From Thermoplasmatota archaeon (lineage in GTDB: Archaea > Thermoplasmatota > E2 > DHVEG-1): 49,502 nt of DNA. Location of the stretch: the NCBI GenBank assembly GCA_016936135.1, contig JAFGPP010000127.1:1-49502 (forward strand). The letters are read 5' to 3'. This document shows, one piece after another, positions 3,169 through 46,634 of the stretch; the stretch's first letter is position 1, and every line of letters starts with the position of its first letter. Both the position numbers and the translations under genes were made by a program. Under the pieces are notes generated by a model. It saw nothing but the letters and a program-made list of their open reading frames with translations, ran no database searches and was not told the origin of the DNA.

Positions 3169-4196
3169 AAGAATTAGAAAATTGGTCTAGAGAACTTAAA
3201 AAAAATTATACACCATACGAACAAGACTCATCAAAACCGGTAAGCTGCTGGAATGAAAAAGACGTAATTTCGGGAAAAATTGTTGATGCTTTTGTAATAA
3301 TTTTGAAAACAAGAGGTTGCAGTTGGGCACATAATTCCGGATGTTCGATGTGTGGTTATTTTAACGACAGCTTGTGGAGAGATAGTTCAAATGAAGAAAT
3401 TATCAATCAAATAAATTATGCAATGGAAAAATATTCAGATCAAAAGTTTGTAAAAATTTTTACCTCTGGAAGTTTTTTGGACGATGAAGAGATAAATCCA
3501 GAGCTAAGATTTGAAATAATTGGAAAAATTTCTAAAAAGGCAAAAAAAATATCCTTTGAATCAAGACCTGAATACATTACAAGCGAAAAAATTACTAGCA
3601 TTAAAAGCAAATTTCAAAGAAATATTTTTGAAGTAGGTATGGGACTTGAAAGTTCAAGTGACTATATAAGAGATCGTGCGATAAACAAAGGTTTTAACTT
3701 TAGCGATTATAAAGATGCGGCCTTATTACTGAAAAAATCTGGTTGGGAAGTAAAGACATATGTGCTTGTAAAACCACCATTTTTAACAGAAAAACAAGCA
3801 ATTGATGATTGCAACCAAACCATTAAAAAAATTAAAAATTTGACTGACACAGTTTCATTGAATCCAACAAATGTTCAAAGTAACACTATTGTTGAATACC
3901 TTTGGAAAAGAGGGCAATATCGGCCCCCGTGGCTATGGAGTATCGTTGAAATATTGAAAAATGCAAAGAAAACATTAAAAGATGTAAGAATCAAATGTGA
4001 CATTGTTGGTGGTGGGGGTATAAGAGGAGCACATAATTGCAGATTATGCGATAAAGGTTTTTTACAATCAATTAATGAATTTTCTCTTCTTCAGGATTTA
4101 ACATTATTTGATGATTTGAATTGCGGATGCTTCGATAAGTGGGTTGATTGTCTAAATTTCGAACGATTTGGATTTGGTTCGCTTGTGGATATGTGA
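3165..4196 (+). CDS. Radical SAM protein, TIGR01210/RaSEA-like (possible archaeosine biosynthesis partner)
   Basis: Cys cluster GCSWAHNSGCSMCGY, about 340 aa, archaeal context beside trmI. ATGA start/stop overlap with the upstream gene. The family call is from memory of the TIGR01210 pattern. Confidence 0.5.
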   Translation: MKELENWSRELKKNYTPYEQDSSKPVSCWNEKDVISGKIVDAFVIILKTRGCSWAHNSGCSMCGYFNDSLWRDSSNEEIINQINYAMEKYSDQKFVKIFTSGSFLDDEEINPELRFEIIGKISKKAKKISFESRPEYITSEKITSIKSKFQRNIFEVGMGLESSSDYIRDRAINKGFNFSDYKDAALLLKKSGWEVKTYVLVKPPFLTEKQAIDDCNQTIKKIKNLTDTVSLNPTNVQSNTIVEYLWKRGQYRPPWLWSIVEILKNAKKTLKDVRIKCDIVGGGGIRGAHNCRLCDKGFLQSINEFSLLQDLTLFDDLNCGCFDKWVDCLNFERFGFGSLVDM

Positions 4197-4201
4197 CAGT
4201 T

Positions 4202-4969
4202 ATGACTGAAGAAATTTCAAAAGGAGAAAGTGTGGTTTTAATTGATTCTTCTTATAAAAAAATCATTATTGACACAACTGAAAAAACTGATAAGTTCAAA
4301 GGCGTTGGAGTATTTGATCCTTCAATTCTAGTTGGTAAAAAATACGGCGAAAAAATTACAATTGGCTCAAAGGAATTCTGGATTTTTAGACCATCTGTAA
4401 TGGATAAGTTACATTCGTTAAAAAGGATGGCTCAAATTATTTTACCGAAGGATTCAGCACACATTATTTTGAATTGTTCTATAGAAAACGGGCAAACGGT
4501 TTTGGAAGCTGGAATTGGTTCCGGGTCTCTAACGATTGCTCTTGCAACTGCAGTTGCTCCGGATGGAAAAGTTATCTCATATGACACAAGAAAAGATTTT
4601 ATTAGTCACGCAATAAAAAATCTTGAAAAAGCCAGATTGGACCAATATGTAAAGACAAAACAAAAAGATATTACAAAAGGAATCGATGAAAAAGATCTAG
4701 ACGCAGTAATTATTGATATCCCAAATCCTTGGGATGCCATCAATCATTCATGGACTGCACTTAAACCAGGCGGCTATTTGTGTTGTTATTCTCCTCTTAT
4801 TTCACAGGTTGAAAAAGCTGTTTTTTCTATAAGAGAAAACAAGTTTATTGAAATAAAAACCGTTGAAAATATTCAAAGAGAAATGATAATCTCGGAACAT
4901 GGTACACGCCCAAGCTTTGACATGTTAGGTCACACAGGATACCTTACATTTGCAAGAAAAATAATCTAA
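4202..4969 (+). CDS. trmI: tRNA (adenine57/58-N1)-methyltransferase TrmI (GCD14 family)
   Basis: LEAGIGSGSLTIALATAVAPDGKVISYD SAM-binding motif, DAVIIDIPNPW, LKPGGYL, C-terminal HTGYLTFARKI; collinear with Pyrococcus TrmI as I recall it. I place the start at ATG 4202. The track ORF start at 4148 overlaps the previous gene. Confidence 0.85.
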   Translation: MTEEISKGESVVLIDSSYKKIIIDTTEKTDKFKGVGVFDPSILVGKKYGEKITIGSKEFWIFRPSVMDKLHSLKRMAQIILPKDSAHIILNCSIENGQTVLEAGIGSGSLTIALATAVAPDGKVISYDTRKDFISHAIKNLEKARLDQYVKTKQKDITKGIDEKDLDAVIIDIPNPWDAINHSWTALKPGGYLCCYSPLISQVEKAVFSIRENKFIEIKTVENIQREMIISEHGTRPSFDMLGHTGYLTFARKII

Positions 4970-19474: not shown

Positions 19475-19698
19475 GACAAGTATGCCTCCCACTTCTTTGA
19501 GACAAGTATTAATGAAATTGTTGATATTTAAGTATTGTCATAAAATTTAATTAACCGTTGCGATACTTATCTACTCTGAAGCGTTTTGAAGAATCTGATG
19601 GCCTTTTGTTTACTTAACAACTGTACCATTAAACTAATAAACTAATTAAATTATACACAACATGTTAGGGATTCCTAGTTTCTAGGAGGATGAATTGG

Positions 19699-20355
19699 AT
19701 GGGATTATTTGGTATAGGAAGTTTCTCCTCGATTATTCAACGTATTTTTGGTAAAAAACATGCCAAGATCGGAATCTATGGACCACCCAATGTAGGTAAA
19801 ACAACTCTGGCAAATAGGATTTTAAGAGATTGGACGGGAGATATCATGGGGAGCGTATCAGAAATCCCTCATGAGACAAGAGTAGCAAAATGCAAAAAAA
19901 ATGTCAGAGTCGAAAACGGTTCTTCGTCACTGATGATGGATATAATTGATACTCCCGGAATAGCTACAAAAATTGATTATAAAGAATTTATGAATACCTT
20001 TGGTCTCAGTCGCGAAGAAGCTAAAAAACGTGCAAAGGAGGCTACAGAAGGAGTTATTGAATCTATTCGGTGGCTTGAAAATGTTGATGGTGTCCTTCTT
20101 GTTATGGACTCCACTCAGGATCCATTCACACAAGTTAATGTTACAATTATTGGGAATCTTGAAGCAAGAAATCTTCCCGTGCTTATTGCTGCAAACAAAA
20201 TTGATATGGAAGACTCCAGTCCGGCAACCTTGAAATCGGCATTTCCACAACATCCGGTCATTCCTGTTAGTGCCTTGACAGGTTATAATGCTGAAAATTT
20301 GTATTCTCACATGGTAAAACAATTTAGTAAACGGAAACGAAGACGGGGTAGATAA
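19699..20355 (+). CDS. Archaeal GTPase (TRAFAC class) of the GTPase/DUF2073/Zn-ribbon operon
   Basis: G1 GPPNVGKT, G3 DTPG, G4 NKID, G5 SAL. AGGAGG (19684-19689) abuts the first ATG (19690), so the second ATG (19699) is the better-spaced start, giving MGLFGIGSFSSIIQRIFGKK. Confidence 0.75.
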   Translation: MGLFGIGSFSSIIQRIFGKKHAKIGIYGPPNVGKTTLANRILRDWTGDIMGSVSEIPHETRVAKCKKNVRVENGSSSLMMDIIDTPGIATKIDYKEFMNTFGLSREEAKKRAKEATEGVIESIRWLENVDGVLLVMDSTQDPFTQVNVTIIGNLEARNLPVLIAANKIDMEDSSPATLKSAFPQHPVIPVSALTGYNAENLYSHMVKQFSKRKRRRGR

Positions 20356-20357
20356 TC

Positions 20358-20735
20358 ATGGTGAATAAGGATAAAGGAATCTCGGTCAATCTTGTATCAA
20401 GACAAAAATTGGAGGAATTTTCTACAGATGAAAAATTAGAGTTTATTCTTAATGAAATTAGAAACGGAAAAGTATTGGTTTTGGAAAATGGACTTACTTC
20501 TGTTGAACAGGCCAGTCTGATTCAACAGACAATGGAGAAAATCGAACAAGACACTTTTATAGGCATTGAAATGGAAGGCTATGGTGAGGAGAAAGCGTCT
20601 TTTTTACAAAAAATTTTGGGAAAAATAAAGAAACCAAGAATGACTGTTATCGGCCCGGCTGATCTATTAAAAACTGTTCGCAAGGATAGCAATATGATAC
20701 AAACTAGGATAATTCCAGGTAGAGGAGCTAGGTAA
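20358..20735 (+). CDS. DUF2073-like conserved archaeal protein
   Basis: 125 aa, starting 3 nt after the GTPase stop. I recall this size and genomic position as the COG3365/DUF2073 partner of this GTPase. No catalytic motif seen. Confidence 0.45.
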   Translation: MVNKDKGISVNLVSRQKLEEFSTDEKLEFILNEIRNGKVLVLENGLTSVEQASLIQQTMEKIEQDTFIGIEMEGYGEEKASFLQKILGKIKKPRMTVIGPADLLKTVRKDSNMIQTRIIPGRGAR

Positions 20736-21286
20736 TGCCCCATCAATGTTTGAAATGCGGCCATGTATTTGAAGAAGGTTCATCTCAGCTTCTAAAAGGT
20801 TGTCCACGGTGTGGGGGAAATCGGTTTTTCTTCACAAAAGAGCCCATTGGCGATGAAGAACGAAACGCAATAGTTGAAAAAGTTGGAAAGGACATAAATT
20901 CAACGATATTGGATTTGATGCAATTAGATCAGAAGGATGTAATTGATCAGTCAGGTAACTGGCTAAAATTGAAACCAAAGGACGTTCGAAAGGCTTTTAA
21001 ACAGCATTTGCCGGAAAAAAACGAGGAAAAAGAAGAAATTTTTGACTCAAATAAAGATATTGGCAATATAATCGATGAGGAATATAGAAGAAAAATAATT
21101 GACAAAATTAAGACGGAGTCAGAAGGACCAGATGTTCCTGAAACAATCGATATTGAAAAACCTGGACAATATAATATCAATTTGAAAGGACTGCTTGAAA
21201 AAGAGCCCATTATTATTCAGAAAGACGGGTCATACATAATTCATCTACCATCAATTTTTAAATTAATAAATGAAAAGAAGATATGA
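20735..21286 (+). CDS. Zn-ribbon protein (DUF2072/COG3364-like)
   Basis: N-terminal CLKCGH...CPRCGG zinc ribbon, K/E-rich linker, conserved-looking C-terminus. TAATG stop/start overlap with the upstream gene. Confidence 0.55.
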   Translation: MPHQCLKCGHVFEEGSSQLLKGCPRCGGNRFFFTKEPIGDEERNAIVEKVGKDINSTILDLMQLDQKDVIDQSGNWLKLKPKDVRKAFKQHLPEKNEEKEEIFDSNKDIGNIIDEEYRRKIIDKIKTESEGPDVPETIDIEKPGQYNINLKGLLEKEPIIIQKDGSYIIHLPSIFKLINEKKI

Positions 21287-25684: not shown

Positions 25685-28591
25685 ATGGGGGATAGAAATA
25701 CAATGAGGAGGAATGATAAACTCGTCGTATTGATTGGAGTAATCGTGTTGATTTTGGCTTCAATAAGCATATACTTTTGGAGTCCTGTATTTACTTCTAC
25801 AGAGGTGGCAAACGTAGATGATATCTGTGGCGTTACTGGTAAATTTATTAGAAAACCCAATTCTATAACTGTTTTGGATGTATGTCCCTTCTATCCTCTT
25901 ATTGCTACTCCACTAGTAGTAAATTATGACGAAGACAATGTGCAATATATTAAACCTTTATATGTTAAGAATGCAACAGAAACCTCCCAAGCAATTTCAA
26001 GGGCAGAGTTTCAAATCGGATTACAGTCAGAAGAATTTATTGACGGATTGAAATCCCCTAAAGAACATTCTATTTATCTTACAAAAAAATATTGGGATAA
26101 AAGTGATGCTGCTTTGTTAATAAAATATGATAAAGAAGGATATGAGTTAGGTGTTGCTGCAACCCCTCTTGCTTCCTATCTGTCCATTCCAGTAATCGTA
26201 ACTGACGAGATGGACCAAGAAGTAAAGCATTTACTTGATGATCTTGAGGTAAAATATTCTCTTATCTGTGGAAATCTTTCAGGTTATGGAAAATCTCTTG
26301 AATTTTCAAATATTGATGAAATTGTTAATACATCAATTTCTATTGTAAGACAAAAATTTGGAAATGATCCACAGTATATCACAATTGCAAATCCCCGCGA
26401 TGCATGGCCACCAACTGTAATAGATGTTACTAATAAATTTTATGAGGGCACTTTAGAGTCGGGCAGTTTACTTCCTTCTCAGATTTTAACTGCAATCCAA
26501 CAAAAAACAGAAGTCATTAAATTTACAATTCCAGAAGATTACAAATACGCTTTGGTAAAAATAGAATTAAGAAATCTAGAGGATCCGGTAAATATTGAAA
26601 AATTTGGTGATGTTGTTACGATCCAAGGCAGTCTCATAGGATTTGCTAGAACTAGCGCAAGTCCAGCAGAACGAGACTTAAATGGCAACGTTGAATATGA
26701 CAGATTTTATTATGAAACTATATTGTATGATATGGGGGGAGAAGAATTTGACATAAAATTAAGTGCTAGTTTCCACACAGTTGATTCGGCCAAATACAAA
26801 CTTTTTGTTACAATGGAAGAATTGAGCGATCCGTATTATCCTCTAACGAAAGGCCTGTCTTCTATTGCACCGTATTTGACTGCGTATCATAAGGGAATTG
26901 CATTTGCAAAACCAGAATTTGCATTTGCCGCAGATGATGATGTATTATTGGATGGGGAAAAATTACCTGGAAATACACAAGTTATGAAAAATCCAATTCT
27001 CATACCAGTGGTTAACAGACATGTATATAACAATATTCACAAACCGTTCAATGAATTGCTTGCAAAAATTAGAGGAATAGATATATCCAATGAAAAGGGC
27101 ATCGAAAGCCTAACAAAGGATTGTAAAATAGATCCTTTTTATGTGGCGCTTGTGGGGGATACTACGATGGTGCCGCAGTACTACTATAGAAGTCCCCATA
27201 ATGATCCCTTTACCAGTCAGGACAAAATGTATGGAACTGGATGTCCTAGTGATTTCATTTATGGAAATATTGATCCTGAGACATACTTTATGCAACCATA
27301 TGTTGGTAAGAAAGATGTTGAAAATGATAAATATTCAAAATATCCTGAAGTAGAAAATATTGTAGGTAGAATCACCGGATGGGATATTCAGGATGCAAGT
27401 GCCTTAATTGTCAGAACCATTTTTTATAATGATGTAATTGATAAATTGGGAGAATGGAAAAATAATGCAGTAGTTATGTCAGGGGCAGGTTTAGAATTCC
27501 AGAAATTACCGTTTTTCAACACAGTTTATAACCTTCTCGATAAACATGAACCAATGAAATTCCCTACGGGGGAGCAACATTTCCTAAATATACGTACATC
27601 AAAAAATATACAGGAAGGGGATTTTAACGTTGAGATCGCTGAACGTGGGAAAGCTCAAAGAGTGGGTTATACAGACGAGGCTTTATGGGAAATTAAACAA
27701 GATGGTTTACTTAATATGCTTTTCTTCCCACGTTGGTTGGTAAAACTTGCTCAGGGATTTGAAAGCGTTAATTCACTTTTCAGCCCGAATTGGTGGAGGG
27801 AAGCATTGAGTGATCAATCTGGAGTTAGGGGAGGCGAATTACAGGAAAGCAGTAATTTGATTCTGACTAATTCACACGGAATATGGTTTGGATTTGAACA
27901 TGGAGATTCAATGATGTATCTTCTTGGCGGTCCACCGATTCTGTATCAGCTCATCGGTAGATTTTTCCCAGTTATAGGGAGATTTTCTACTCCACTAGAT
28001 AGTATTGGCAGTTATGACGTCCGCTCGGTTTCAGACATGGAGCTTGGGCCATCCGTAATGTTTGTGGAGGGATGTGGATGTGGAAAAATTGACAGTGTTC
28101 ATCCTGCAAATACAATTGCAAATGCGTATCTGCATTCTGGGGTAAATGCCTACATTTCCCCAACAACATATTCAGCTATTGGCGGATATCTAGAACCTCG
28201 TCCAAAGTGGCCATTGCTTGATGACGGAGTGGGTTTTGGGATCCTTGGATACTTAAATGCGGCAATTAACGCAAGAAAAGGAGTATATCCAGACGTACAT
28301 TTCTGTGGAGTGATATTTGAGGATTCATATCAGCAATTGATTAATGGAGATGTTGATGTTGGCACAGCTCTTAGAAATGCAAAAAATAATTTTCTACCAG
28401 AGCAGGTTAGTAAAAAATACTTATGGACCCCTCCATTGGGAGAACAACTAGATTCAGTTCCAACTTATACACTTACCACTGGTCAGAGAGGAGATGAGGT
28501 AATAATTGAGAAGTATTGTACAATTTATCAGTTGAATTTACTAGGAGATCCAGCCTTTAATCCATATGAGCCATGTAATGAGGGCAGCTAA
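25685..28591 (+). CDS. Membrane-anchored/secreted gingipain-like (peptidase C25, clan CD) cysteine peptidase, paralog 1
   Basis: N-terminal TM/signal (LVVLIGVIVLILASISIYFW). C25-like N-subdomain: YVALVGDTTMVPQYYY, PSDFIYGNID, VGRITGWDIQDASALIVRTIFY. Candidate catalytic His-Gly is LILTNSHG (His codon 27875-27877) and candidate Cys is MFVEGCGCG (Cys codon 28073-28075). Both are conserved in paralog 2. Confidence 0.6.
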   Translation: MGDRNTMRRNDKLVVLIGVIVLILASISIYFWSPVFTSTEVANVDDICGVTGKFIRKPNSITVLDVCPFYPLIATPLVVNYDEDNVQYIKPLYVKNATETSQAISRAEFQIGLQSEEFIDGLKSPKEHSIYLTKKYWDKSDAALLIKYDKEGYELGVAATPLASYLSIPVIVTDEMDQEVKHLLDDLEVKYSLICGNLSGYGKSLEFSNIDEIVNTSISIVRQKFGNDPQYITIANPRDAWPPTVIDVTNKFYEGTLESGSLLPSQILTAIQQKTEVIKFTIPEDYKYALVKIELRNLEDPVNIEKFGDVVTIQGSLIGFARTSASPAERDLNGNVEYDRFYYETILYDMGGEEFDIKLSASFHTVDSAKYKLFVTMEELSDPYYPLTKGLSSIAPYLTAYHKGIAFAKPEFAFAADDDVLLDGEKLPGNTQVMKNPILIPVVNRHVYNNIHKPFNELLAKIRGIDISNEKGIESLTKDCKIDPFYVALVGDTTMVPQYYYRSPHNDPFTSQDKMYGTGCPSDFIYGNIDPETYFMQPYVGKKDVENDKYSKYPEVENIVGRITGWDIQDASALIVRTIFYNDVIDKLGEWKNNAVVMSGAGLEFQKLPFFNTVYNLLDKHEPMKFPTGEQHFLNIRTSKNIQEGDFNVEIAERGKAQRVGYTDEALWEIKQDGLLNMLFFPRWLVKLAQGFESVNSLFSPNWWREALSDQSGVRGGELQESSNLILTNSHGIWFGFEHGDSMMYLLGGPPILYQLIGRFFPVIGRFSTPLDSIGSYDVRSVSDMELGPSVMFVEGCGCGKIDSVHPANTIANAYLHSGVNAYISPTTYSAIGGYLEPRPKWPLLDDGVGFGILGYLNAAINARKGVYPDVHFCGVIFEDSYQQLINGDVDVGTALRNAKNNFLPEQVSKKYLWTPPLGEQLDSVPTYTLTTGQRGDEVIIEKYCTIYQLNLLGDPAFNPYEPCNEGS
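26850..26941 (+). repeat. Near-identical nucleotide block shared with 29859-29950 (copy A)
   Basis: 51 nt (26850-26900) are identical to 29859-29909. The next 41 nt carry 3 mismatches. The block encodes GLSSIAPYLTAYHKGIAFAKPEFAFAADDD. Confidence 0.85.
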
Positions 28592-28651
28592 AACTATTTT
28601 TATTCTTAATTTTAAATTATTTTTCAATTTTGAATAACGTTTAAATAATAT

Positions 28652-31507
28652 TTGTTTAATAATAATTATCAGGTGATTCATTTGCATAAAAAAATAAGAC
28701 AACCAGCGACGATTCTTTTTGGAATGTTTATTATTTTCATGTCATTTGGTGCAATAACAGTTTTACCTCAGAAATCAAATGGCGAAGTTAAAGACAACTC
28801 ATTTGGGTATGTTAATTACGATATTAAATCAAATTTTTCACCAGATTTGTTATCCGCAATAACTGTTTCTGATAAAAATCCGTTTTATGCCCTAATTGCA
28901 ACTCCTCTGGCAGTCAGATATGATAATGAAGGAAACCAGTTTATTGCACCGCTGTATGTAAAAAATTTGACCAATCCTTCAAAAGCTATAATTAGAGCTG
29001 AACAACAAGTAGGTCTCTATACTGATTTTACAATTGGTGATACTCTCCCACCAAAGGACATCTCTTTGTTTGTTGCTGATATGTTTTGGGACGATACCAA
29101 TACTGCTCTGGTTATTAAGGACGACGAATCTGGCTATAATCTTGGTGTTGTCGCCACGCCAATTGCTTCATATTTGGGGATTCCTGTTATTGTAACGGAT
29201 GTTATCGATCATCATGTTAAATCAGTTTTAGACGCTCTTGGTGTAGTAGGTCTATATATTTGTGGCGATCTTCATACTTCATCTTATTGGGTTAAGGAAT
29301 TTGAAAGCACCGAAGAAATTATTGAAGAGTGTATGACTATAATACATCACATATTTGGCGATTCTATCCAATATATTACGATTGCAAACCCTTTAGATGT
29401 GAATCAACCAAAAGTTCTTGACAAAATCATATATGAGTTTTCTGGAAACCTTGGCTCAATGATGTTTCTTCCTACACAAACTATTGGTATGTTGCTTAAT
29501 GGCCAGATGAAAACCCATAGATTCGATATACCTTCAGATTACAAATACGCCAAACTAATTCTTGATCTTGAAAATAAAAATCCTGAGAATGCTGAGAGAT
29601 TGGGGGATAAGGTTTCGGTTATTGTGAGTAGTCCAGATGGCCCTAGATATTTTTTTGTCTCAACTGATGGAGGATTACCAGTTCGCGATATGAACGGTGA
29701 CATCATTGAAGATAAAATTCACTATGAAATAACCTTGTACAATAAACCTGGAAATTATGGTATTCAAGTACTTGGACAGTGGGGTGCACAAAAGGTAGGT
29801 TCCTATGAGGCAATTGTTACAATAGAAAAAATTGAATCGCCTGTTGTTCCTTTGATGGAAGGCCTGTCTTCTATTGCACCGTATTTGACTGCGTATCATA
29901 AGGGAATTGTATTTGCAAAACCGGAATTTGCATTTGCTGCAGATGATGATATTCTTAACAATGGTGAGCCATGTCCTGGCGTAACTCAACCTGGATCAAA
30001 TCCCTTGCTCGTAGAACCGTCCAATGCACATACTATGCAGATTCATCAGGAACTCAACAATCTACTTGCTGAAATGGCCGAAATTTCCACCTCAAATTTG
30101 CAAGGACTAAGGAATTATTACTATGATAATCCCGTATATATTGCCATAGCTGCTGATCCGACCATGGTTCCCATGTATTTTTATTATAACCCCGACGGAA
30201 GACTTGATGCAAAAGCTTACATGATGGGTTTTGCACTTCCAAGTGATTTTATGTGGGGGGATATTGATCCAAAGCCGGGTGATCTTGAAAATAATTCATT
30301 TAGTACGTGGCCCAGTATGGAAAATATTGTGGGAAGAGTAACCGGACGTGATGTACAGGATTGCAGTGCCCTTATTGCAAGAACTATCTTTTATGAAAAT
30401 ATTATTGAAAAAATGGATGACTGGAAAGACACTGCCCTTGTTCAAACTGGTTGCGGTCTTGAATTTCAAAACCTGCCAATTATAACAAAGTTAAGTCAAA
30501 TGTTGTTTAGTGGTAGAGGGGAACCTACTAAATTTCCGACTGGAGAAAGTACCTTTATTAATTTACGTTTAAAGGAAAAAATGGAGGGAGGCTACACCAA
30601 TGTTAAAAATACGTTTTTACTTGAATCCCAAAGAGAAGGTTTTACTGAAGATGAATTGAAGGACATAAAAAATGCAGGAATTCTAAATAGATTGCTATTC
30701 CCAAAGAAATTTATCGAGTTATTAATGTCTGATGAGAAAGTTACAGGTGGGCAATCACACCTTGACAGTAGCTTGATTTTCACCTTTGCTCACGGCTCAT
30801 TTAACCTTTTTGAACATGGTGACATATTTGTTGATTCGCGAGGTTTTCCTTTTGTTACTGCGATTTCACGTATATATCCACAGATTAGAAGCGGATTATC
30901 AAGCAAAGGATCTTACAGTATTCGTTCTATTGAAAATATGAATTACGGACCATCGGCGGTATTTGTAGAAAGTTGCATAACAGGTAGAACAGATGGAATT
31001 CCTGGTGAGAATGTATTGTCTCAGACATTTATACATGCAGGGGTAAATGCCTATATTGGTGCTACAAGAGTAACTGCGGACCCTGGCTACCTTGAGCCAC
31101 GTCCTTTACCTGGAGGGGTCGGCATTGGGATACTAGGATTAATGAAAGCAATGCTTGATTTAAAATTATATTCAAAATATCCCGATCTTCATTTTGGGGC
31201 GGTAATCGCAGAAGATTTTATCAACGAATTGATCGAAAATGATGCAACAACTGGTCTTGCGCTGAGAAATGCTAAAAATGTATATCTTGAAAAGGATGCT
31301 AATTCCACTTTTCTATGGACACCTCCTCTATCCCTCTCGACAGGCAACAGCATTATTGATCAACTGTGCTTATCTTCCTTAAACCTAGAACAATATAACG
31401 GGAATGTTAGAACCAAAGTTTTAGATAAAAAATATGTTGCACTGCACGAATTCACTCTTTATGGGGATCCAGCTTTCAATCCATATCAGTCGGTAAACGA
31501 AGGCTGA
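28652..31507 (+). CDS. Membrane-anchored/secreted gingipain-like (peptidase C25, clan CD) cysteine peptidase, paralog 2
   Basis: Collinear with paralog 1, with roughly half the residues identical by eye. Motifs: YIAIAADPTMVPMYFYY, PSDFMWGDID, VGRVTGRDVQDCSALIARTIFY, FTFAHG, FVESCITG, C-terminal GDPAFNPY. Start uncertain: TTG 28652, or TTG 28682 preceded by AGGTGA. Confidence 0.6.
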   Translation: MFNNNYQVIHLHKKIRQPATILFGMFIIFMSFGAITVLPQKSNGEVKDNSFGYVNYDIKSNFSPDLLSAITVSDKNPFYALIATPLAVRYDNEGNQFIAPLYVKNLTNPSKAIIRAEQQVGLYTDFTIGDTLPPKDISLFVADMFWDDTNTALVIKDDESGYNLGVVATPIASYLGIPVIVTDVIDHHVKSVLDALGVVGLYICGDLHTSSYWVKEFESTEEIIEECMTIIHHIFGDSIQYITIANPLDVNQPKVLDKIIYEFSGNLGSMMFLPTQTIGMLLNGQMKTHRFDIPSDYKYAKLILDLENKNPENAERLGDKVSVIVSSPDGPRYFFVSTDGGLPVRDMNGDIIEDKIHYEITLYNKPGNYGIQVLGQWGAQKVGSYEAIVTIEKIESPVVPLMEGLSSIAPYLTAYHKGIVFAKPEFAFAADDDILNNGEPCPGVTQPGSNPLLVEPSNAHTMQIHQELNNLLAEMAEISTSNLQGLRNYYYDNPVYIAIAADPTMVPMYFYYNPDGRLDAKAYMMGFALPSDFMWGDIDPKPGDLENNSFSTWPSMENIVGRVTGRDVQDCSALIARTIFYENIIEKMDDWKDTALVQTGCGLEFQNLPIITKLSQMLFSGRGEPTKFPTGESTFINLRLKEKMEGGYTNVKNTFLLESQREGFTEDELKDIKNAGILNRLLFPKKFIELLMSDEKVTGGQSHLDSSLIFTFAHGSFNLFEHGDIFVDSRGFPFVTAISRIYPQIRSGLSSKGSYSIRSIENMNYGPSAVFVESCITGRTDGIPGENVLSQTFIHAGVNAYIGATRVTADPGYLEPRPLPGGVGIGILGLMKAMLDLKLYSKYPDLHFGAVIAEDFINELIENDATTGLALRNAKNVYLEKDANSTFLWTPPLSLSTGNSIIDQLCLSSLNLEQYNGNVRTKVLDKKYVALHEFTLYGDPAFNPYQSVNEG
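29859..29950 (+). repeat. Near-identical nucleotide block shared with 26850-26941 (copy B)
   Basis: Same block in paralog 2, at an offset of 3009 nt. Confidence 0.85.
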
Positions 31508-45891: not shown

Positions 45892-45921
45892 TCTGTTCCT
45901 CAACATAGAACAAATATAAGA

Positions 45922-46004
45922 TGCAGGGGGAGCGATTTGAACGCTCGAAGACCTACGTCACAGGGTCCTAAGCCCTGCCCCTTTGACCGCTCGGGTACCC
46001 CTGC
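45922..46004 (-). tRNA. tRNA-Leu (anticodon UAG), class II with a long variable arm, no encoded CCA
   Basis: The minus strand folds by hand as GCAGGGG-TA-CCC-GAGCGGTCAAA-GGG-G-CAGGG-CTTAGGA-CCCTG-T-GACGTAGGTCTTC-GAGCG-TTCAAAT-CGCTC-CCCCTGC-A. The 7-bp acceptor stem is perfect. Confidence 0.85.
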
Positions 46005-46063
46005 AGATTGAACCCTAATATAACATTAACTCAAAAATGTTATTGATAAGGTGGAATATTTTT

Positions 46064-46300
46064 TTATAATTTCCCCTTGATAAGCTTTTCTTGCCCGTAT
46101 TTTGAATAGCACTCTGTGCAAAATTCTCTAGCTATCAGAGAATGAAGATGCTTGCTAATTCCTTCCTCACGATGATATATTTCTCCTTCCCCAATTTTTT
46201 TTCTGCAATTTGTACACACTCTGGGGATTTTAGCCACCTTTTTTATAAGATGAGTTTCGATTTTTTCCATTTCAATTCCCCAAGATAACAAATCGGTCAT
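46064..46300 (-). CDS. Small zinc-ribbon protein (two CxxC pairs)
   Basis: CTNC...CTEC. 78 aa, or 68 aa from the internal MEKIETH start at 46270. No family recognised. Confidence 0.4.
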   Translation of the reverse strand: MTDLLSWGIEMEKIETHLIKKVAKIPRVCTNCRKKIGEGEIYHREEGISKHLHSLIAREFCTECYSKYGQEKLIKGKL

Positions 46301-46453
46301 CCATTATATTTATTTTGTAGTTTTTTGATTTATATTTTGACTATGGGAAAATATCGATTATGGAAATAATCTAGTTATCAAAAATTAAATCTTATTTATA
46401 TTAACGTTTAAGTATGAGAAACAGTATTCGCAACAATCAAAAAATTTAGCAAT

Positions 46454-46583
46454 AGCGGGGGGTTAACGCTTCCCATCATAGCGAGCAATTATCTAACGAT
46501 ATTTGCCTATAAGGGTGGGGTAGCCAGGAGATCCCGACGGGCCCATAACCCGTAGATCAGTGGTTCGAATCCACTCCCCGCTA
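46454..46583 (+). tRNA. Initiator tRNA-Met (CAU) interrupted by a 55-nt insert (putative non-canonical intron) in the 5' acceptor strand
   Basis: AGCGGGG (46454-46460) is perfectly complementary to CCCCGCT (46576-46582). After removing 55 nt the sequence folds as AGCGGGG-TG-GGGT-AGCCAGGAGA-TCCC-G-ACGGG-CCCATAA-CCCGT-AGATC-AGTGG-TTCGAAT-CCACT-CCCCGCT-A. A1:U72 and G29-31:C39-41 are initiator hallmarks. Confidence 0.8.
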
Positions 46584-46634
46584 CTATTTTAAAAAAGTTA
46601 TAATGTCTAAATAAATATCCTATTTACGCCAGAA

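Follow-up and report, generated by a model that had tools for sequence, protein, structure and literature searches.

Non-canonical tRNA introns have been reported almost entirely from Crenarchaeota, with a few from thermophilic methanogens (PMC3218864), and reviews describe them as concentrated in Crenarchaeota, Thaumarchaeota and Nanoarchaeota. According to the account of Sugahara et al. 2008 in PMC4090602, the extreme 5' position of such an intron is 3/4, in Thermoproteales. The alpha4 and alpha2 splicing endonucleases of Euryarchaeota act on canonical bulge-helix-bulge (BHB) motifs only and need the strict hBHBh' form (PMC4033280). The window analysed here, a single stretch of 49.5 kb with a G+C content of ~33%, very probably carries the initiator tRNA-Met orthologue of a Thermoplasmatota archaeon from marine sediment, interrupted between tRNA positions 4 and 5 by a 29-nt BHB intron.

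The intron belongs to the known BHB kind and is distinct in its lineage, tRNA, position and leader architecture. Like the non-canonical BHB introns of Thermoproteales (PMC4090602), it would be spliced by proteins, lies outside the anticodon loop in the 5' acceptor strand, and has a BHB that draws on leader bases. Unlike them, it occurs in Thermoplasmatota, at position 4/5 of an initiator tRNA; its motif is the strict hBHBh' form and not a relaxed one, its leader carries a candidate surrogate acceptor strand, and it recurs at one locus in many species. The split tRNAs of Nanoarchaeum equitans (tRNAiMet split at 37/38) and Caldivirga also build a BHB from an exon and a non-tRNA leader or trailer, and in N. 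equitans too an initiator tRNA depends on BHB cleavage (PMC3218864, PMC4033280). In contrast to these, the present gene would give one cis transcript with a strict BHB and a break at 4/5, from which the leader would be removed only later, at the true 5' end. A BHB step before RNase P and tRNase Z form the termini would be shared with the permuted tRNAiMet of Thermofilum pendens and the permuted tRNAs of Cyanidioschyzon merolae (PMC3218864, PMC4090602), from which the present gene differs in its normal exon order and lack of a circular intermediate. The D-loop intron of Methanopyrus kandleri tRNA-Glu likewise lies outside the anticodon loop in a lineage of the euryarchaeal side. M. kandleri matures the ends of its tRNAs first and removes introns last (PMC3695527), whereas the BHB described here holds leader bases -1 to -12, so that the order should be reversed. 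In archaeal pre-rRNA (PMC7714728), flanks that are later discarded also pair and present a BHB to the same endonuclease; here, however, a tRNA is cut, and mature tRNA sequence supplies one strand of the stem. In the literature searched, the coverage of which is incomplete, we found no precedent for an intron of this type in Thermoplasmatota or Thermoprofundales, for an initiator intron at 4/5 or for a leader-encoded surrogate acceptor stem.

Both ARAGORN and Rfam call a tRNA-Met(CAU) gene in the region (...AAUAGCGGGGGGUUAACGCUUCCCAUCAUAGCGAGCAAUUAUCUAACGAUAUUUGCCUAUAAGGGUGGGGUAGCCAGG...) as an uninterrupted gene of 70-71 nt at 46514-46583/4. The first-pass annotation had instead proposed an initiator tRNA gene interrupted in its 5' acceptor strand by a 55-nt intron, 46458-46512, having noticed that AGCGGGG at 46454-46460 is the exact complement of CCCCGCT at 46576-46582 and that the D-arm starts only at 46516. 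Both observations are true of the sequence: U8 and the D-arm begin at 46516, and deletion of 55 nt at each of the four candidate junctions gives one and the same 75-nt sequence. These two sites are the only matches to AGCGGGG on either strand of the window; since ~1.1 matches are expected per window, chance does not explain a copy on the right strand that lies ~60 nt before the tRNA. A second ATAGCG at 46478-46483 had been overlooked, which uses the same CTAT and AAG and has strong flanking helices. Because this proximal copy is invariant, the first base of the distal copy is variable, and relatives all begin AGCG, the 5' exon is placed at 46480-46483 and not at 46454-46457, and the intron is 29 nt (46484-46512) instead of 55 nt. 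The coordinates of all features are given in Table 1.

Table 1. Features of the initiator tRNA-Met locus, with positions in the window
Feature	Position	Strand	Basis or remark
Putative archaeal TATA box TTTAAGTAT	46407..46415	+	Conserved columns at the 5' end of the 20-locus alignment
Distal leader element UAGCGGGG	46453..46460	+	Pairs with 46576-46583 in the unspliced precursor (predicted fold)
Leader strand of outer helix h GCUUCCCAUC	46468..46477	+	Pairs with exon-2 46514-46524
Central BHB helix H, 5' strand AUAG	46478..46481	+	Pairs with CUAU 46507-46510
5' exon AGCG (tRNA positions 1-4)	46480..46483	+	Invariant in the 107 listed interrupted sequences
5' bulge C G / A, predicted cut 46483/46484	46482..46484	+	Three unpaired bases between H and h'
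Intron AGCAAUUAUCUAACGAUAUUUGCCUAUAA, 29 nt	46484..46512	+	Comparative alignment, fold
Intron hairpin h' GCAAuUAUC / GAUAuUUGC, loop UAAC	46485..46506	+	Fold, covariation
Central helix H, 3' strand CUAU, within the intron	46507..46510	+	Pairs with AUAG
3' bulge A A / G, predicted cut 46512/46513	46511..46513	+	Junction geometry, fold
3' exon (tRNA positions 5-73), 71 nt	46513..46583	+	Sequence, ARAGORN, Rfam
Oligo-T run TTTT, inferred transcription stop	46587..46590	+	Sequence

Joining 46480-83 to 46513-83 yields AGCGGGGUGGGGUAGCCAGGAGAUCCCGACGGGCCCAUAACCCGUAGAUCAGUGGUUCGAAUCCACUCCCCGCUA, the 75-nt product that the first-pass annotation had predicted, and the uninterrupted gene of MAG locus L007 has exactly the same sequence and is aligned by Rfam over the full model length at 56.8 bits, compared with 42.4 bits for the uninterrupted call in the window. 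Archaeal initiator tRNA-Met is marked by the anticodon CAU, an A1:U72 pair and three G:C pairs at 29-31:39-41. In the spliced tRNA, A46480 pairs with U46582 (A1:U72), GGG at 46539-41 forms three G:C pairs with CCC at 46549-51 in the anticodon stem, and CAU lies at 46544-46546 in the 3' exon, which ends in the discriminator A73 without an encoded CCA. The initiator identity proposed earlier was thus borne out by the features used to define archaeal initiator tRNA-Met (CAU anticodon, A1:U72 and consecutive G:C pairs 29-31:39-41; PMC8450103). The TATA-box block TTTAAGTATGAGAAACATTATTC is conserved across interrupted loci and the same motif occurs upstream of uninterrupted orthologues; if this putative promoter is used, transcription may start at ~46430-46440, and the TTTT run is likely to act as an archaeal transcription stop. 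As a separate observation, the anticodon loop is CCCAUAA, with C33 (46543) in place of U33, both in the window (46542-46548) and in loci L002-L077. U33 is near-universal in tRNAs. The C33 pattern was matched in 76 species genomes, mostly of Thermoplasmatota, with a few DPANN archaea and four bacterial MAGs.

The predicted splice motif has the form of a BHB, with a 4-bp central helix that is followed on the 3' side of either strand by a 3-nt bulge, and the presence of both flanking helices h and h' makes it a strict hBHBh'. The 5' strand of helix H consists of leader bases -2 and -1 together with A1 and G2 of the tRNA. Helix h comprises 7 bp, a one-base bulge (U46521) and 3 bp, in which the leader pairs with exon-2 GGUGGGG-u-AGC, its UCCCAUC facing GGUGGGG, and helix h' spans nine positions (46485-93 with 46498-506), eight of them base pairs and one a U.U mismatch. 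By the known BHB rule, cleavage would occur at 46483/46484 and 46512/46513; cuts placed two bases into each bulge, followed by exon joining, give a standard mature tRNA. The BHB-constrained fold is at or within ~1 kcal/mol of the minimum free energy in 17 of 20 species, and the local fold has z=-3.7. A domain search of the ORFs of the 49.5-kb window found no EndA or RtcB domain. An intron-encoded C/D-box RNA was also considered and dismissed, because the intron is merely a 23-42-nt hairpin.

To place the locus among its relatives, one genome per species was scanned with an anticodon-arm pattern (C33). The resulting 76 loci, almost all from Thermoplasmatota MAGs of marine sediments, seeps and similar habitats, included 44 uninterrupted (...AUAGCGGGGUGGGGUAGCC...) and 19 interrupted genes, and the latter together with the window form a 20-species alignment. 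Metagenomes were also searched for the interrupted 3' junction; the pattern, in which AA and exon 2 were fixed, matched at least 120 contigs. The 19 MAG species and the matches listed among these contigs give 107 distinct interrupted sequences. Among the matches listed, 93 of 94 distinct metagenome upstream sequences fit the architecture. In the exception, L094 (SMTZ1_10001325), part of the intron and the start of exon 2 are repeated (...CCTATAAGGGTGGGGTAGCAAATTGAATATCGCCTATAA); faulty assembly or a local duplication is the probable cause.

The exon boundaries and bulges are nearly invariant. The proximal ATAG-CG|A (46478-84) is present in 107 of 107 distinct listed sequences, ATAGCGA being invariant in the 20-species alignment and the 5' bulge CGA occurring in 93 of 93 distinct metagenome sequences among the matches listed. 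In the interrupted genome loci an invariant CAU-AGCG-A(G/A) stands ~30 nt upstream of A(A/U)-GGGU(G/A)GGG. The partner of helix H is CTAT in 102 of the listed sequences, CTAG in four and TTAT in one, and the 3' bulge is AA in 19 of the 20 genome-derived loci and AT in the remaining one (a feature free to vary there and fixed in the metagenome pattern). Exon 2 starts with GGGUGGGG in 19 of 20 interrupted loci and with GGGUAGGG in L074, and uninterrupted relatives begin AGCG without exception. Intron length ranges from 23 to 42 nt with a mode of 32 (107 listed sequences).

Pairing of the motif is retained in 96.6% of cells of the 20-species alignment, compared with 40-49% when the partners are slid. 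All four outer pairs of h' show compensatory changes in these 20 species. Across the 107 listed sequences, the first three pairs of h' form in 97-100%, with GC/AU, CG/UA and AU/GC swaps; in shifted registers pairs 2 and 3 fall to 0-46%, and pair 1 remains high in some of them. In helix h, the six core pairs are 98% paired in the 20 species and changes on the leader side are wobble-only, as expected because the partner is constrained tRNA sequence; over the 107 listed sequences pairing is 94-100% at most positions and 80% at pair 3. Two-sided covariation is impossible for helix H and most of helix h, because the exons are almost invariant. At pair 10 of h, the leader covaries with D-loop nucleotide 16 (G:C 45, A:U 30, A.C 20, G.U 10; Fisher p=1.7e-5).

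The model of the first-pass annotation, in which the distal AGCG(GGG) from 46454 is the 5' exon and the 55-nt intron is excised through a relaxed BHB formed by ATAG 46452-55, accounts for several features of the window: the distal copy is a perfect ATAGCGGGG that pairs fully with the 3' acceptor strand, ATAG can be paired with CTAT at 46507-10 to leave CGG and AAG as 3-nt bulges, and the mature sequence is unchanged. However, the equivalent of position 1 is A in just 16 of the 107 listed sequences, and many of them carry an extra U (GCGGUGG), whereas the proximal ATAGCGA never varies among the 107. Most species would then possess a non-A1 initiator, at odds with the AGCG of all intron-less relatives. 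When the four junctions of the 55-nt intron were compared, 4/5 alone gave a 4-bp central helix, which upholds an interruption at 4/5 in the 5' acceptor strand, but this helix is without flanking helices, G46460 standing opposite G46505 and A46451 opposite G46514. The weakness of the flanking helices, which had been noted for the distal copy, does not apply to the proximal BHB, where 10 outer pairs and a nine-position intron hairpin complete the strict motif. These data make a distal 5' exon very unlikely; CTAT and AAG, and with them the 3' splice site after 46512, serve the proximal motif as well, so the earlier BHB-like geometry holds on its 3' side and fails in its choice of the upstream ATAG copy. 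Still less credible is the absence of any intron, with a 70-nt tRNA-Met at 46514-46583 whose acceptor stem is GGUGGGG/CCCCGCU. Such a gene passes the thresholds of ARAGORN and Rfam, but at 42.4 bits it falls 14 bits under the spliced sequence, and the covariance-model fold that might have explained the region without an intron leaves the D-arm unaligned. In the ARAGORN call the anticodon falls at position 31, the stem would hold G1.U72 and U3.G70, and the conserved, covarying upstream structure would be left without explanation. It is likewise highly improbable that an insertion broke the gene and left a pseudogene, with a working initiator tRNA elsewhere in the genome. MAGs are incomplete and the window is part of a genome, which leaves room for a second gene, and uninterrupted tRNAiMet orthologues do exist; these were found in sister MAGs, whereas no second scan-pattern match was present in 19 of 19 interrupted assemblies (incomplete MAGs, searched with the C33 anticodon-arm pattern); as far as MAG completeness and this pattern allow, the result speaks against a pseudogene. 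Moreover, a disrupted gene would hardly retain the architecture in 107 listed sequences, with compensatory changes in its pairs but none in exon 1 or the splice bulges, at a locus syntenic with the normal gene.

With the 5' exon at the proximal copy, the distal G-rich element calls for another interpretation. Its partner is the 3' acceptor strand CCCCGCU(A), both in the minimum-energy folds of 20 of 20 species and in 96 of the 107 distinct listed sequences. In the folds of the 20 species, the anticodon and T arms are native and the h-BHB-h' rod takes the place of the D-arm. At the first base of the element, 63 of the listed sequences have G, 20 have U, 16 have A and 8 have C, and for this reason the element is not the mature 5' end; its variants in the 20 loci include AGCGGGG, GGCGGGG, UGCGGGG, GGCGGUGG, GGUGGGG and others. 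All interrupted genes have the element and uninterrupted ones almost entirely lack it: the duplex between leader and 3' strand averages -14.2 kcal/mol in interrupted genes versus -4.0 in the 44 uninterrupted ones (p=3e-10), and leader complementarity to tRNA bases 5-16 is -13.1 versus -8.8, statistics that phylogenetic non-independence weakens in both comparisons. We read the element as a surrogate acceptor strand that would block the 3' strand from pairing with exon-2 GGUGGGG, the very misfold that ARAGORN and Rfam report, and would leave GGUGGGG free for helix h. On another account the intron is real but the element is functionless, a second copy of the original 5' end that remained when the intron arose and is now decaying. 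The element does look like the true 5' end, reading ATAGCGGGG in 5 of 20 species and ATGGCGGGG in others, its invariant partner strand rules out two-sided covariation, and the pairs that extend into the trailer do not covary, no covariation of the element with discriminator or trailer being detected in the 107 listed sequences. Against decay, it is kept in 107 of 107 listed sequences at -8.6 to -17.5 kcal/mol beside a spacer that varies freely in length and sequence, its changes are mostly compatible with pairing (G.U, U.G), and it has decayed in intron-less relatives that keep other leader relics, such as L062. A functionless relic is therefore conceivable but rather doubtful.

On the reading of the element as a surrogate acceptor strand, processing could proceed as follows. 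A precursor of ~150 nt would be transcribed from the TATA box near 46407-46415. In this precursor the leader strand GCUUCCCAUC (46468-77) would pair with exon-2 bases 6-16, and AU with A1 and G2 (46478-81) would pair with CUAU (46507-10), leaving CG|A and AA|G as bulges; the intron hairpin would complete the strict hBHBh' motif and displace the D-arm, while the G-rich upstream element (46453-60) would hold the 3' acceptor strand as a surrogate acceptor stem. A splicing endonuclease would then cut after 46483 and after 46512, and an RNA ligase would join AGCG to GGGUGGGG, so that spliced RNA with the leader still attached would carry the junction CAUCAUAGCGGGGUGGGGUAGCC. Removal of the intron hairpin would tip the balance towards the native cloverleaf, and the leader would fold on itself. 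The true RNase P site (46479|46480) would be exposed only after splicing, and 3' trimming and CCA addition would finish the 75-nt tRNA.

The order of these steps, which like cleavage, ligation and refolding we infer, follows from the position of the motif; order and refolding rest on thermodynamic predictions. The RNase P site of the precursor falls within helix H, and splicing should precede RNase P cleavage because H and h use leader bases -1 to ~-12 and 5' cleavage would wreck the motif. When the intron is removed in silico, the fold of lowest energy has the native acceptor stem in 10 of 20 species; in the other 10, where the pre-splicing fold is slightly favoured, the native stem lies within 0.3-4.4 kcal/mol of it. 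The self-folded leader consists of the distal G-run paired with the leader C-run. It is quite possible, if short of probable, that two conserved leader decoy strands, one imitating the 5' acceptor strand and one complementary to tRNA bases 6-16, force the precursor into a splice-competent, RNase-P-incompetent form and that intron removal triggers strand exchange to the native cloverleaf.

Interrupted and uninterrupted loci have the gene order purL-purS-P-loop kinase-like ORF-78 aa ORF-tRNAiMet-HGSNAT-purM in common, and since the flanking genes are the same in both locus types, these are one gene with or without an intron. A purM neighbour-joining tree and nearest-neighbour identities show the two types interleaved (a single gene, without support values and poorly resolved); the interrupted L030, for example, is nearest to the uninterrupted L002 at 84.5%. 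One gain followed by several precise losses is tentatively the simplest reading, because the architecture is clearly homologous in all carriers. In intron-less L062 (..AAUGGUAAAAGGCUACUCAUCAU-AGCGGGG) and L065 both leader elements can still be recognised in degraded form, and decayed element copies are present in the leaders of the uninterrupted L062, L065, L046 and L036 (GCTACTCATCAT; GGCGAGG...CACCCATC; GGCTACC). Such copies suggest precise intron loss followed by decay. A separate case was seen in L051 1-90 (JAPDLS010000003.1, Candidatus Haiyanarchaeum thermophilum), where ~30 extra nt lie in the T-loop of the initiator tRNA (GACGGTTCAAAT-GGCTAAGCTCTAATGGGCTAGCCTGAAATT-CCGTC); this insert looks like a different non-canonical intron near position 60/61, and the 5' part of the gene is missing at the contig end.

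The genes of the window include a methanogen-type SerRS domain, Nre, OapB, OapC, gyrase, purL, purS and purM. A conserved cysteine-rich ORF of 78 aa without a Pfam match (46064-46300, minus strand) has orthologues in ~37 loci and in every case adjoins the initiator tRNA gene, and a divergent, ordinary tRNA-Leu(UAG) with a long variable arm (45920-46005, minus strand; 55.3 bits) lies ~450 nt upstream. On the plus strand, a SerRS-like ORF with the methanogen-type tRNA-binding domain tRNA_bind_4 spans 316-1818 and a GCD14/TrmI-type tRNA m1A58 methyltransferase spans 4148-4969. A GTPase-like ORF is followed by genes for the origin-associated proteins OapB and OapC (19690-21286, plus strand), because of which a replication origin may lie nearby. 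Two adjacent ORFs of 968 and 951 aa (25685-31507, plus strand) are both Peptidase_C25 (gingipain-like), a pair that fits a protein-degrading sediment archaeon. Together with the sample sources of the matching loci, these peptidases hint at a benthic, MBG-D-like group of Thermoplasmatota.

For annotation, what ARAGORN and the general Rfam tRNA model give is a shortened 70-nt gene with a wrong 5' end, and tRNA annotation and completeness estimates of these MAGs may suffer; tRNAscan-SE 2.0 may well detect the present intron, because it lengthens candidates by 60 nt in order to find introns close to their ends. The close relatives, some with and some without the intron at the same syntenic locus, provide a natural series in which the gain and loss of tRNA introns can be studied. 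An endonuclease restricted to the strict BHB can serve introns at the 5' extremity of a tRNA if half of the motif is leader, and this design predicts a testable order, splicing before RNase P, as well as a leader-encoded surrogate acceptor stem. If the leader strands do act as decoys, splicing before 5' maturation would be obligatory, the reverse of the M. kandleri order, and could provide a checkpoint on the supply of initiator tRNA in widespread sediment archaea. Translation initiation in these archaea would hinge on tRNA splicing at an unusual site.
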